55,614 nucleotides of DNA from an uncultured bacterium (GCA_964521965.1 CAZFUM010000001.1:1-55614), one strand, 5' to 3'; positions 14,294 through 19,002 are shown, counted from the stretch's first letter. Translations and numbers: made by a program. Notes: generated by a model not told the origin, from the letters alone.

Positions 14294-16354
14294 ATGAAGG
14301 TTTCACATTTTTGGATTAGAGCCCTTCCTGTACTGGCGCTATCGCTAGCTCAGCTTGGACAAAGCCATGCCGTCACCCCGGCCTGGGGCCGTTTTCATCT
14401 GGTAGCGGGTGGCGGTGATCCTGATTTTCGTGACGCGGCGTATGTTGACGCTGCGTTGAATTCACCGACGGCCTCCGCGGTGAGTCAAGATGGCAAGTGG
14501 ATCTACGTAGCCGATTTGGCCAATCATGCTATTCGACGAATTGACGTGGCCCAAGGTTGCAAGGTTGAAACTTTGGCTGGCGGACCTTTGAGCGAAGCTT
14601 GCAAAAGCCCCATGTCGCTGGCCCTGGTTTCTGAGCAGAACATGCTTGTCCTTGCCGCAGGCAAAAAACCTGTATTGATGAGATTGAACGCGAATGGCGG
14701 AAGCCCCAGCGAATGGAAACTTGATGGGAAAGAAGTTCCCTGCGAAGCGGTTGCTGCACATCCTTTGAGGCCCTGGGTCTATGGACTTGATCCGCTTAGT
14801 GGCTCGGTCTATTTCGGGGACCTCGGCAAGAATAGCTTGGTGAAAATCGGCGAGTTTGTTGAATTTAAGCCGGGCCCCGGCCAGGCTCCGCCTGCACCTG
14901 GCCAATGGCAATTGGCGGCCACTGACACTGAGCTCTACGCCCTTGACCGCTACCGTGGCCGACTCTGGCGCCTCTTGCGCGATCAAGGCCCCCTTGTCGG
15001 CAATCCGCGCGAAGACTTCCCCCTCAACGGCACCCTGAAAGCCGAGGGCTTGCAGAGCTGGGGCGAAGCCAGTGTTCGTGGACTTTGCGCAGTTCGTGTT
15101 GAACGTGAGCGCCCATTTTGGGAGATTTGGGTTTGGGATGAATCCAAGCCCGCATTCTGGGTCTATGATCCTCAAACCCTTAAGACCCGTGAAATGTACC
15201 TGCGCACTGCGCAGGGCAACTTTATCAAGCCAAGCGACCCTGCGCCACGCTGGCCCAGAGATACCTACGACATCACCGATGCGACTTATCGGCCCGCGCT
15301 GAAAGGCCCTCTAGGTATCGTGAGTGACCATGCCCGCGGCCTGCTCTATATCGCCGAAAGCAAAGGCAATCGCATGCTGGGACTGCAGCGTCCTGAATGG
15401 ACAGCCGTGAGCCTCACCGAACTTGATGATTACTATCACTATCAACGTATACCAGGGGTTAAGCGCATCTTATTGGTGGGTGACTCCATGGTTCTCTCGG
15501 ATGATTTAGGCGCCAAAGATGAAGCCCGAATCGAAACCGGGTTTGGAAAGAAACTTGAGTTCTACCTCAATCTTTTTTCATCCTTAAAGGGGAAGAACCA
15601 ACGATATCAAGTCCTACAGAAGTCAATGGCGTTGGGCGCCATGGGGGGAGGCGTCAGTGCATATTTAGCGAGCCTGCCTATACCCCAGAACGGAACCGAA
15701 TTTGACGAAGCCATCACTCTGCTCACTTACATGAATGTGAACCTAGAACTACTTTCAATGATACGGACCAAATCGCCCGATGATGTGCCCGGCGCTTTAG
15801 TAGATCCAGCCTACTGGGGCCAGACAACAGACGAACTTCGCGAGAACATGGGACCATTACGGCGCAGCTTCATGGATTGGCTTCGCAAGAATCCAAAAGA
15901 CTATGAAGCCTACCTTCGCACTGATGAAACCGCCTCGCGACTCGACACACCCCAAAGTCCTTTCGCCTTTGACTTATTACAAAAACCCACGTACCAAGCC
16001 TGGGTGTCAAAGGCGCATCAAAAAGTGGTGAAACGCTGCGTTGAAAACATGAAGAAGCGAAAAGCAGGGTATATTCAAATACTGCTGCCGATGCGCAACC
16101 AGCTGGCTCCTGGTGAAAATATCAAAGGAGGCTACAGTTTCAGCGACACGACCCAAGCGCCATGGTTCGACGCTGAGCTTGCCAAGATCGCCAAAGAAGA
16201 AGGCGTACCCTTTATCAGTTTGACTGATGCCATGCGCTCGCTTGAACCAAACGTATTTCCTTTGGTCGGCTACAATACGCACCATTACCGTACACAGGGA
16301 ATTGAATGGGCGGCCTTGATTACGGCCTGGACATATATCGAAAGACAGCTTTGA
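14294..16354 (+). CDS. Secreted NHL-repeat beta-propeller protein fused to a C-terminal SGNH/GDSL-like (AlgX/AlgJ-like) hydrolase/acyltransferase domain
   Basis: ATG 14294 follows GAGGGGGA, 1 nt after the Smr stop. Signal peptide MKVSHFWIRALPVLALSLAQLGQSHA. NHL-like units (GKWIYVADLANHAIRRID; RGLLYIAESKGNRMLGL). SGNH block I ILLVGDSMVLS and a distal ...YNTHHYRTQG. Confidence 0.8.
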   Translation: MKVSHFWIRALPVLALSLAQLGQSHAVTPAWGRFHLVAGGGDPDFRDAAYVDAALNSPTASAVSQDGKWIYVADLANHAIRRIDVAQGCKVETLAGGPLSEACKSPMSLALVSEQNMLVLAAGKKPVLMRLNANGGSPSEWKLDGKEVPCEAVAAHPLRPWVYGLDPLSGSVYFGDLGKNSLVKIGEFVEFKPGPGQAPPAPGQWQLAATDTELYALDRYRGRLWRLLRDQGPLVGNPREDFPLNGTLKAEGLQSWGEASVRGLCAVRVERERPFWEIWVWDESKPAFWVYDPQTLKTREMYLRTAQGNFIKPSDPAPRWPRDTYDITDATYRPALKGPLGIVSDHARGLLYIAESKGNRMLGLQRPEWTAVSLTELDDYYHYQRIPGVKRILLVGDSMVLSDDLGAKDEARIETGFGKKLEFYLNLFSSLKGKNQRYQVLQKSMALGAMGGGVSAYLASLPIPQNGTEFDEAITLLTYMNVNLELLSMIRTKSPDDVPGALVDPAYWGQTTDELRENMGPLRRSFMDWLRKNPKDYEAYLRTDETASRLDTPQSPFAFDLLQKPTYQAWVSKAHQKVVKRCVENMKKRKAGYIQILLPMRNQLAPGENIKGGYSFSDTTQAPWFDAELAKIAKEEGVPFISLTDAMRSLEPNVFPLVGYNTHHYRTQGIEWAALITAWTYIERQL

Positions 16355-17328
16355 AGCACGCTGCCCGGGCATTTTGCATCTGCCTGCTCACAGCTGAAAT
16401 CGGGCTACGCTTGGCAAGCTCTAGCTTCTGGCAAGAATGGGGCAGGGCAGAACTTGTGGGCGCATCCAGTTTGACAGATTATGTCACTGCCGTACGCATA
16501 GCAGTTCCAAGCCAAACTCACGTTTGGCTTTTTGGTGACAGTGTGCTTTACGGTAGTGCCCTGCTCGAGCACCACACGCCCCATTGGCGCGAGAAGACAG
16601 TTGGCAGCTATTTAAGGCGACAGGATTCTCAACGAAACTGGAGTGAAATATCAGCCGAAGGCTTGCTGATTCCTGATTTGAGGGCGATTGTTCAAATAGC
16701 GCAACCTGCAGCTCGTGATACGCTCATCATAGAACTTAACTACCGAATGTTCAGCGCTGACGCAGGCCAAATTGAGAATTCTTATTCACGCAATTTTCTA
16801 GCGCCTGCATATCAATCAGATTGGGAAGAGAATCTTGCTGCCTATTCAGCCTATTATCGGTACGCCCAAATTGCCCGATATCTTTTTTGGCAACCATCAC
16901 GCGAGACACGCGTGGCCCAATGGCTGCGTTTCGGCAAGGCTCTTGGCACAGGGCCCGCTGTAGACGACGAGCTCAGAGCCAATCTGTTAGCGATGAAAAT
17001 CTCACCCTATTATTCTGCGCCGGCTCTGGCGCCCCAGCATGCAGGTCTAGCCGCACTGAATGCCTGGTTGCCTGAATTGCTCCAACAAAAAGGCAGGGTA
17101 CTGGTCTTCCTCACCCCACAAAATTGGGACTTAATCGGCGAGTATACCGATGAAAAGGCTTATGCCAAAAACCGAAAAATCCTGAAAAATTTGCCTTGGC
17201 CCAAGAATGTAATCTATGTGGATTGGGCTGACAGAAAACCCAGTCAAGGACGTTTCTTAGATCATTGCCATCTAGACGAAGTCGGTAATCAGGAGCTGGC
17301 GACATGGCTGCTCAAGGAGCTGCCATGA
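16306..17328 (+). CDS. Membrane-anchored SGNH-family protein (DltD/AlgJ/PatB-like O-acyltransferase/esterase)
   Basis: SGNH block I VWLFGDSVLYGS and block V FLDHCHLDEVGNQELA. N-terminal hydrophobic segment AFCICLLTAEIGL. ATG 16306 has an AGGGA SD. TTG 16351, which overlaps the upstream stop, is an alternative start. Confidence 0.75.
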   Translation: MGGLDYGLDIYRKTALKHAARAFCICLLTAEIGLRLASSSFWQEWGRAELVGASSLTDYVTAVRIAVPSQTHVWLFGDSVLYGSALLEHHTPHWREKTVGSYLRRQDSQRNWSEISAEGLLIPDLRAIVQIAQPAARDTLIIELNYRMFSADAGQIENSYSRNFLAPAYQSDWEENLAAYSAYYRYAQIARYLFWQPSRETRVAQWLRFGKALGTGPAVDDELRANLLAMKISPYYSAPALAPQHAGLAALNAWLPELLQQKGRVLVFLTPQNWDLIGEYTDEKAYAKNRKILKNLPWPKNVIYVDWADRKPSQGRFLDHCHLDEVGNQELATWLLKELP

Positions 17329-17435
17329 AGTGGCGCAATTGGCTCATAGGTGTGGCGGCATTCTTGCTGCTGACAGCGCTATTGGTCTGGGGCGCTGGCT
17401 TTGCCGCTTCTAAATTCATATACGTGGACTTTTAG
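17325..17435 (+). CDS. DltX-like 36-aa single-pass membrane peptide (not in the ORF track)
   Basis: AAGGAG lies 5 nt upstream. The ATG overlaps the upstream TGA (ATGA), and its TAG abuts the ATG of the MBOAT gene. Translation is MKWRNWLIGVAAFLLLTALLVWGAGFAASKFIYVDF*. Confidence 0.6.
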   Translation: MKWRNWLIGVAAFLLLTALLVWGAGFAASKFIYVDF

Positions 17436-18575: not shown

Positions 18576-18588
18576 GGCCTGCCTAAAA

Positions 18589-19002
18589 ATGCGTATCATG
18601 CTTGCTTGCCTAATGAGTATCTTGACTACGTCTGCCCTTAGAGCTGATTTCACGGCTCAGCAACAAGGCTGCACCAGCTCAGCCAAGCTGGGACCCCTGA
18701 CTCTCAAACACTGTGATGTGTCATTTGCCAAGACACCCAAATATGTCACGGTCATGTGGGATTCTATGCCGTATCAAACTCAGCTCAAATTCCTCAGTTC
18801 AACCGCCATAGCTGACATAGCTCAAGCTTTGGCACTGGACTGGGGCGCACAGCGCTATCCTGTGGCCAAAGTTTTCCGGGTGGTCATGGTCGAAGTAAAA
18901 GAAAGAGACAGCTATGGGCTGCCACGCTGGGACCAACTCAAAGTGCTTCAACGATTTGAGTTCAAGAAAAGCTCAAAAAAACAGCGCTCAAGCAAAAAAT
19001 AG
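18589..19002 (+). CDS. Small secreted protein of unknown function with a Lys/Ser-rich tail
   Basis: Signal peptide [19 protein letters not shown]. It starts 13 nt after the MBOAT gene. The tail is [15 protein letters not shown]. No family recognised. Confidence 0.55.

Follow-up and report, generated by a model that had tools for sequence, protein, structure and literature searches.

A conserved gene module combining an MBOAT, a DltX-like peptide and two SGNH-like domains as a candidate envelope O-acylation system

The subject of this analysis is a stretch of 55,614 nucleotides from an uncultured bacterium (GCA_964521965.1 CAZFUM010000001.1:1-55614), which as a whole we call the window, and which carries at positions 14294-19002 five plus-strand genes encoding, in turn, a secreted NHL protein with a C-terminal SGNH-like domain, a membrane-anchored SGNH protein, a DltX-like micro-protein, an MBOAT and a small secreted protein. 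An earlier note on this DNA, made from the sequence alone, had taken these genes for a module acting in O-acylation of the cell envelope, and the recurrence of the five-gene set in about 45 other contigs with unrelated flanks shows them to be a conserved, self-contained unit. In the published view the MBOAT-SGNH machines show a dichotomy between Dlt, in which a free DltX peptide is combined with a carrier protein as acyl donor, and all other systems, in which the shuttle motif is fused to the MBOAT and the donor is an acyl-coenzyme A (acyl-CoA) (PMC12148441). By their defining features the module lies outside the Dlt and Alg/Wss systems and apparently outside Pat as well; it would function in a similar way to them, and it combines features from both sides of this dichotomy.

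The five genes follow an Smr gene as the last of six plus-strand open reading frames (ORFs) between dnaA (12241-13629, minus strand) and a tRNA-Cys gene (19056-19132). The Smr gene ends with TAG at 14290-14292, leaving a gap of one nucleotide before the ATG at 14294 of the NHL gene, with GAGGGGGA just 5' of this ATG; the NHL gene itself (14294-16354, 686 amino acids, with an alternative TTG start at 14264) ends with TGA at 16352-16354. The gene for the membrane-anchored SGNH protein (16306-17328) starts either at ATG 16306, giving a product of 340 amino acids, a 49-nucleotide overlap with the NHL gene and a GGGA Shine-Dalgarno sequence, or at TTG 16351, where the overlap is reduced to the four nucleotides TTGA. 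The ATG at 17325 of the micro-ORF (17325-17435, 36 amino acids) overlaps the TGA of the SGNH gene (17326-17328) as ATGA and is preceded, seven nucleotides upstream, by the Shine-Dalgarno sequence AAGGAG, and its TAG (17433-17435) directly abuts the ATG at 17436 of the MBOAT gene (17436-18575, 379 amino acids). The MBOAT gene in turn ends with TGA at 18573-18575, and after a gap of 13 nucleotides the gene for the small secreted protein (18589-19002, 137 amino acids) begins with the ATG at 18589. All of these junctions had been listed in the earlier note, and each reads in the sequence as it was listed there. The micro-ORF, with its strong Shine-Dalgarno sequence, is translationally coupled; a scan of the region for promoters and terminators returned matches at chance level.

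The enzyme at the centre of the module was described from the outset as an MBOAT of DltB size. Its length of 379 residues and the Pfam MBOAT profile (PF03062; 87.6 bits against a cutoff of 27, E = 1.3e-24) agree with this description. The NCBIfam profile LTA_dltB (TIGR04091) likewise matches over its full length, at 198.2 bits, which is below the cutoff of 375 for a DltB equivalog, and the only relatives of the protein among PDB sequences are those of DltB (6BUG and 8JEM; E = 3e-31). The catalytic His268 and His308 (codon 18357-18359) align with H289 and H336 of DltB, and both are invariant in 26 family members and in 82 other MBOATs. More than 100 DltB-sized relatives are at least 48% identical to the window MBOAT and carry database labels such as "AlgI" or "MBOAT family". 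In a neighbour-joining tree the family MBOATs are monophyletic; they are short (379-410 amino acids) and, as in dlt, are preceded by the gene for the peptide.

What the short MBOAT lacks is as characteristic as what it retains. Ordinary bacterial MBOATs are roughly 460-520 amino acids long, and 76 of the 79 in our comparison set, obtained by a genome scan with generic MBOAT-profile patterns which returned a single true relative of the family (locus L006), carry an FxYxxF motif fused at the C-terminus. Family members are without the fused motif, and the window MBOAT is without it and without the two extra C-terminal helices of the ordinary enzymes. In the remaining three of the 79 a short MBOAT is accompanied by a downstream micro-ORF that supplies the motif. 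These variants (L054:604-3062, L071:2372-3657 and L076:10001-11470) have micro-ORFs of 32-38 amino acids ending in FLYALF, FIYVDF or FIYFNF; their hosts include a Candidatus Chisholmbacteria metagenome-assembled genome (MAG) and a Bacteroidaceae MAG, and in L054 a DltD-like gene also lies upstream. From these three variants it would seem that free shuttle peptides arose more than once outside Dlt.

The micro-protein of the window (MKWRNWLIGVAAFLLLTALLVWGAGFAASKFIYVDF) is basic at its N-terminus, contains a single transmembrane helix and has FIYVDF as its C-terminal sequence (it ends KFIYVDF, followed by the stop codon), in which Tyr33 is encoded at 17421-17423. FIYVDF fits the FxYxxF acyl-shuttle motif of DltX (PMC12148441), so that the window encodes, separately from its MBOAT, a micro-protein of the DltX type with the motif at its C-terminus. 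In DltX and in PatA the Tyr of an FxYxxF-type motif carries the acyl-Tyr intermediate (PMC12148441), and MBOAT pathways other than Dlt are stated to have no DltX-like micro-protein (PMC12148441). The micro-ORF is a real gene: it directly follows the DltD-like gene in all 40 loci that include the junction, and its 35 distinct products end in F[IL]Y[VA]DF (31 in FIYVDF, three in FIYADF and one in FLYVDF) with the Tyr invariant, which upholds its original description as DltX-like. The possibility that it is a broken-off MBOAT C-terminus was considered and rejected for the window family, on the ground that here the micro-ORF, like dltX, precedes the MBOAT gene.

The product of the gene preceding the micro-ORF is, on the strength of its alignment and predicted structure, a membrane-anchored putative SGNH acyltransferase or esterase with an apparently DltD-like fold. 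It possesses an N-terminal transmembrane helix, and its AlphaFold2 (AF2) model, with a mean predicted local distance difference test score (pLDDT) of 70 and a predicted template modelling score (pTM) of 0.71, places a helix at residues 6-44. A Foldseek search of the PDB with this model gave as top matches the DltD structures 3BMA, 7DXM and 6O93 (E = 4e-5 to 7e-4), at TM-scores of only about 0.44, followed by GDSL esterases. The hallmarks of SGNH/GDSL enzymes are present, that is, the Ser of the block I GDS (Ser79, codon 16540-16542), the Gly of block II (Gly119), the Asn of block III (Asn145) and the block V DxxH (Asp319 and His322) together with the fold, and across 40 aligned family members there is no variation at D78, S79, G119, D319 and H322, while N145 is kept in at least 90%. 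A profile search against PDB sequences yielded nothing significant for this protein; however, 17 of the 40 family members match Pfam Lipase_GDSL_2 (best 1.4e-6), and one, which is not the window protein, matches Pfam DltD, at 0.0055. The family is a large one, with 530 representatives at 50% clustering and E <= 1e-3. Three further combinations of the DltD-like domain were noticed in the course of the searches. The proteins P0251, P0261 and P0270 (about 780 amino acids) unite a DltD-like domain and an MBOAT in a single chain, with GAS or SST instead of GDS in block I, and inspection by eye of their linkers and C-termini revealed no FxYxxF. In P0199 and P0223 (about 1050 amino acids) a DltD-like domain is joined to a C-terminal region of roughly 700 amino acids, for which the profiles of NHL, of the second SGNH domain and of the small protein gave no match, and which is, by this comparison, apparently a different and uncharacterised partner domain.

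The NHL protein begins with a signal peptide, after which Pfam detects weak NHL, Arylesterase and SGL matches in the N-terminal part. In the C-terminal domain of some 300 residues, for which direct profile searches of Pfam and of PDB sequences gave no significant match, a GDS motif containing the candidate nucleophile Ser398 (codon 15485-15487) and a His (His664) are invariant in 12 homologues; homologues occur in over 10 loci besides L001 and L003. Aligned by hhalign with the DltD-like family, this domain gives a probability of 93% and E = 3.3e-7 over 247 columns, with the GDS and the His in register, and the equivalent domain of a fused protein in L123 matches Lipase_GDSL_2 at 5e-5. On account of these two results the two SGNH domains of the module are best regarded as probable paralogues. 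The original assignment of two SGNH proteins to the locus thus finds no backing in the Pfam and NCBIfam HMMs (hidden Markov models) and is supported, more firmly for the 340-residue protein than for the NHL protein, by the conserved residues, the fold search, the GDSL matches of family members and the hhalign comparison; in both proteins the nucleophile Ser and the His are conserved, and for these two residues the loss which would have spoken against the assignment is not found. In some family loci the NHL gene is multiplied: L087:4243-9804, L093:2419-7318 and L118:469-6267 each contain two NHL-propeller paralogues, L087 in addition two paralogues of the small protein. In the C-terminal part of several of these extra NHL copies no GDS motif was found, and such copies may be non-catalytic binding subunits.

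The 137-residue protein has a signal peptide and two conserved motifs, Y-V-x-x-x-W-D and E-R-D-x-Y-G-x-P-x-W-D, and searches of Pfam and the PDB brought up no relative of it. Homologues adjoin the MBOAT gene in L001, L003, L005, L087, L090, L092, L093, L097, L104, L107, L112, L117, L118 and others, and the protein is a candidate adaptor or scaffold of an extracytoplasmic complex. The strongest argument for such a complex comes from a sister clade (L113, L114, L119 and L122-L127, with representative proteins such as P0247, P0262 and P0268), in which an MBOAT of roughly 470 amino acids ends in a fused motif (...PAFIYFQF) and a giant protein, encoded next to it, contains, in one chain, a DltD-like domain, NHL repeats, a second SGNH domain and a C-terminal segment resembling the small protein. 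In eight giant fusions, the place best matched by the profile of the small protein is the very C-terminus (E = 2e-5 for P0262, weaker for the others). Since the sister clade unites these domains in a single polypeptide, the comparison supports the notion of a single complex formed by the window's four extracytoplasmic products, and of one machine made up of all five.

The extent of the conserved unit was established from related loci gathered by exact-protein contig look-ups of MBOAT homologues and by a metagenome scan with the DltD-like profile, which together gave 53 loci (L001-L006 and L086-L132; 394 kb). Word-based searches had found only four relatives of the SGNH protein and, for the 686-residue protein, NHL-repeat matches only; the relatives missed in this way were recovered by exhaustive HMM search and the metagenome scan, and in loci of high GC content homologous genes were taken by HMM-based detection and contig gene calls. 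Throughout the related loci the order of the core is DltD-like gene, micro-ORF, MBOAT gene, small-protein gene, and the position of the NHL-SGNH gene varies: it may precede or follow the core, lie on the opposite strand, be duplicated or, occasionally, be non-adjacent. The flanking genes differ from locus to locus, and all-against-all clustering of the ORFs of the 53 loci and the window revealed no recurrent gene family beyond the module and its alternate-frame shadows. The comparison of gene neighbourhoods thus finds the block conserved and no other family co-occurring with it, and none of the related loci is embedded in an alginate, cellulose, peptidoglycan-acetylation or dlt operon. The relatives that bear taxonomic names belong to Thermoanaerobaculia, in the phylum Acidobacteriota.

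One correction to the original description concerns the Smr gene, at or before which the operon was taken to start. This gene (13741-14292, plus strand) encodes a protein of 183 amino acids that matches Pfam Smr at 27.1 bits against a cutoff of 25.7, and in the window it is probably co-transcribed with the module. Because no Smr homologue occurs in any of the 53 related loci, however, it is a chance neighbour outside the conserved module.

The same loci bear on the source of the acyl group. An ORF for an acyl carrier protein (ACP), for DltC or for an AMP-binding protein was found neither in the module nor in the 53 related loci, and neither in the window nor in these loci is a polymer synthase or a recognisable Ape gene linked to the module, so that the absence from the neighbourhood of dltA/dltC, polymer synthase and Ape, which had been remarked for this one locus, extends to its relatives. 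The carrier search had its positive control in the window's own and only ACP gene (40413-40673, plus strand), 22 kb from the module, which was recovered by phmmer with E. coli AcpP at 2e-29; it lies among ORFs of sizes typical for a fatty-acid synthesis cluster. In the Dlt system DltC docks on helix HC of DltB via M302, V305, I306 and M309 (PMC11035591). All four of these residues are deleted or replaced in the 26 family MBOATs examined. The corresponding segment is four residues shorter in all 26, V305 and I306 being deleted and Gly occupying the position of M309, and in its place all 26 carry the signature YIP[LM]GG[NS]R, which they have in common with 63 of 73 PatA/AlgI-type MBOATs. The donor of PatA is acetyl-CoA (PMC12148441). 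Given the absence of the docking residues, the presence of the YIPLGGxR signature and the lack of a linked ligase or carrier, the comparison favours an acyl-CoA, most simply acetyl-CoA, over a carrier protein as the likelier donor. The acyl donor, one of two matters described as open when the locus was first noted, is thus narrowed by the loss of the docking residues and by the signature.

Among the known systems, Dlt, the pathway of teichoic-acid D-alanylation, has several features in common with the module. Like DltX-DltB-DltD, it comprises a short MBOAT with no fused motif and with both His residues conserved, a separate upstream one-helix micro-protein with a C-terminal FxYxxF whose Tyr, in Dlt, carries the acyl group, and a membrane-anchored SGNH partner of apparently DltD-like fold. 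Unlike Dlt it has, in the window and in the 53 related loci, no linked DltA ligase or DltC carrier; the DltC-docking residues are lacking, its MBOAT stays below the DltB cutoff, its order is SGNH protein, peptide, MBOAT, and it possesses two extra conserved proteins, the NHL-SGNH protein and the small secreted protein; moreover, Dlt is a Gram-positive system, whereas the named relatives of the module are Acidobacteriota.

The presence of two SGNH partners instead of one was pointed out in the earlier note. The arrangement is not unusual in itself, since the alginate O-acetylation complex AlgIJFX has two SGNH-like proteins, AlgJ and AlgX, besides the small adaptor AlgF (PMC10641220, PMC4148444). 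With AlgIJFX and with the cellulose system WssFGHI the module would share four roles, those of an MBOAT, an anchored SGNH-like protein, a small periplasmic partner without catalytic function and a further SGNH-like protein bearing a substrate-binding module. The likeness is confined to this division of labour: in those systems an MBOAT of roughly 470-520 amino acids has the shuttle motif at its own C-terminus, in the module the motif is on a separate peptide, the binding module is an NHL propeller and not a carbohydrate-binding module, the proteins are not detectably homologous in sequence to AlgJ, AlgX or AlgF (AlgX, 4KNC, is reached at E = 0.94 only), and in no locus is the module part of a polysaccharide synthase operon. 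The PatA-PatB pair of the Gram-negative cluster for O-acetylation of peptidoglycan (OAP) resembles the module in pairing an MBOAT with an SGNH protein, in its acyl-Tyr shuttle motif, in the lack of linkage to a polymer synthase and in the YIPLGGxR-type cytoplasmic signature of the MBOAT, which makes an acyl-CoA donor probable. It differs in that the motif of PatA is fused on two extra helices and that of the module is free, and the module adds a second SGNH domain on an NHL propeller and a small secreted protein; a PatB or Ape1 homologue was not recognisable in the module, in comparisons that did not use PatB and Ape1 sequences directly.

We consider it probable that the five genes constitute one extracytoplasmic O-acyl relay, a split-shuttle variant of the MBOAT-SGNH machines, for which we infer in what direction and order the transfers take place, which acyl group is moved and what accepts it, as follows. 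The 379-residue MBOAT would take an acyl group from a common cytoplasmic thioester, most likely acetyl-CoA, and not from a dedicated carrier protein. Its His268 and His308 would then esterify Tyr33 in the FIYVDF of the 36-residue membrane peptide, whose C-terminus would face outward, and the acyl-Tyr would be handed to the anchored DltD-like protein, at its Ser79. Onward transfer could be direct, or the secreted NHL-propeller protein, which would be the holder of the substrate, could provide an intermediate stop at Ser398 in its paralogous SGNH domain; the 137-residue protein would serve, as does AlgF, as a non-catalytic adaptor. At the end of the path, an envelope glycan whose synthesis genes would lie elsewhere in the genome would accept the group on a hydroxyl. 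Taken together, these steps would mean that an acyl group, most likely acetyl, is probably carried across the inner membrane onto a surface polymer, and the chemistry is very likely the transfer from acyl-Tyr to acyl-Ser that is already known, which extends a familiar mechanism without adding a new principle.

Several considerations weigh against such a relay. Neither here nor in the related loci does a linked gene hint at the acceptor. Neither of the two SGNH proteins of the window matches an SGNH family in Pfam or NCBIfam. In the second SGNH domain, that of the NHL protein, the position of the triad Asp is occupied in the window by Asn, the block III Asn is not conserved, and a single-sequence AF2 prediction reached a pLDDT of only 37; in view of the Asn at the triad position, the unconserved block III and the unmodelled structure, this domain could, instead of being a station of the relay, act as an esterase, serve for binding or have weak enzyme activity. 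The family MBOATs lie at a distance of 0.61 from generic MBOATs and of 0.73 from DltB, which is not much farther. The argument for acyl-CoA draws on a single DltB sequence and an uncharacterised signature, and dltA and dltC could be encoded elsewhere in the genome.

There is a different division of tasks to consider, in which the MBOAT, the peptide and the DltD-like protein would O-acetylate a ubiquitous polymer such as peptidoglycan, as do PatA and PatB, the NHL-SGNH protein would be an Ape-like esterase that removes the groups again, and the small protein would regulate one of the two. That neither the triad Asp nor the block III Asn is conserved in the NHL protein would accord with this view, as would the situation of the module among housekeeping genes in every locus, which fits a universal target such as peptidoglycan, and the inconstancy of the NHL gene in position, strand and copy number, including loci where it is not adjacent (L005, L105), which suggests a looser role than that of the core genes. 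However, the fusion of NHL-SGNH, DltD-like and small-protein-like domains in the sister clade is more easily explained by a single transfer complex, and profile searches against PDB sequences disclosed no homology to PatB or Ape1, whose sequences were not compared directly. We regard this combination of writer and eraser as unlikely.

Even less probable, in our judgement, is an aminoacylation of the Dlt kind, in which D-alanine, or another amino or acyl group, would be supplied by a carrier protein and a ligase encoded elsewhere and would be transferred to an anionic envelope polymer by the pair of DltX- and DltD-like proteins. Several features speak for it: the MBOAT has the size of DltB, matches LTA_dltB over its full length (198 bits) and has in DltB its sole sequence relative in the PDB, the best structural matches of the partner protein are to DltD, and Dlt is the one pathway for which a free DltX-like peptide encoded upstream has been described to date (PMC12148441). 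Yet the score of the MBOAT is far under the DltB cutoff of 375, a dltA- or dltC-like ORF is absent from the module of the window and from the 53 related loci, and the DltC-docking residues are missing. In addition, homologous extracytoplasmic proteins also pair with motif-fused MBOATs of the PatA/AlgI type, and the named relatives, Acidobacteriota of the Thermoanaerobaculia, belong to a diderm phylum for which teichoic-acid synthesis is not known. A protein or lipid acceptor, for example a secreted or outer-membrane protein caught by the propeller, would suit the common role of NHL propellers in protein interaction and the lack of linked polysaccharide genes in every locus. Such a non-glycan acceptor is nonetheless very improbable, as no candidate substrate protein other than the small secreted protein is conserved beside the module and all characterised bacterial MBOAT-SGNH pairs modify glycopolymers (PMC12148441).

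Returning to the extracytoplasmic relay, it is possible, although we hold this with distinctly more reserve than the relay itself, that the module represents a third MBOAT-SGNH architecture, in which a free peptide of the DltX type is combined with an acyl-CoA as donor and the acyl group would pass two paralogous DltD-like SGNH domains in succession, one of which is carried by an NHL propeller, and which would decorate an unrecognised O-acylated polymer in Acidobacteriota-like diderms. The module is a widespread exception to the dichotomy of MBOAT-SGNH systems, and, if the third architecture is real, the module family and the variants in L054, L071 and L076 would overturn the view that DltX-like peptides are restricted to Dlt. 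As a minimal self-contained system it lends itself to asking whether the choice between a free peptide and a fused motif is tied to the type of donor, and whether two SGNH domains can operate in series. It points to an O-acylated envelope polymer in poorly studied bacteria of soil and peat.

The genes that flank the module in the window are housekeeping genes, among them leuA-like, murI, DUF366, dnaA, mdh, sucC and citrate synthase genes as well as genes for TPR proteins. Downstream of the module, at a distance of 4.5 kb, lies a gene (23552-25507, minus strand) for a 651-residue protein with a TMEM260-like protein O-mannosyltransferase domain and C-terminal TPR repeats, an envelope glycosylation enzyme that is not kept beside the module in other loci. 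Farther on, between the genes for a large TPR protein and an S49 peptidase, a 275-residue AAA_22, TniB-like or STAND-type ATPase is encoded (28829-29656, plus strand), and no transposase was noticed near its gene. On the upstream side dnaA is divergent from the Smr gene across 111 bp (window 12241-13740). A cluster of DnaA boxes is found nowhere in the window, where three one-mismatch matches compare with about nine expected and hence fall below chance, and there is no switch of GC skew at the position of dnaA; a replication origin does not appear to lie beside dnaA in this window. The glutamate racemase gene murI (10762-11595, plus strand) was considered as a donor-pathway gene and rejected, being unlinked to the module in every other locus. 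The end of murI is overlapped by 22 nucleotides by the gene for the DUF366 protein (11574-12167, plus strand; E = 7e-56), which suggests that DUF366 and murI are co-translated.

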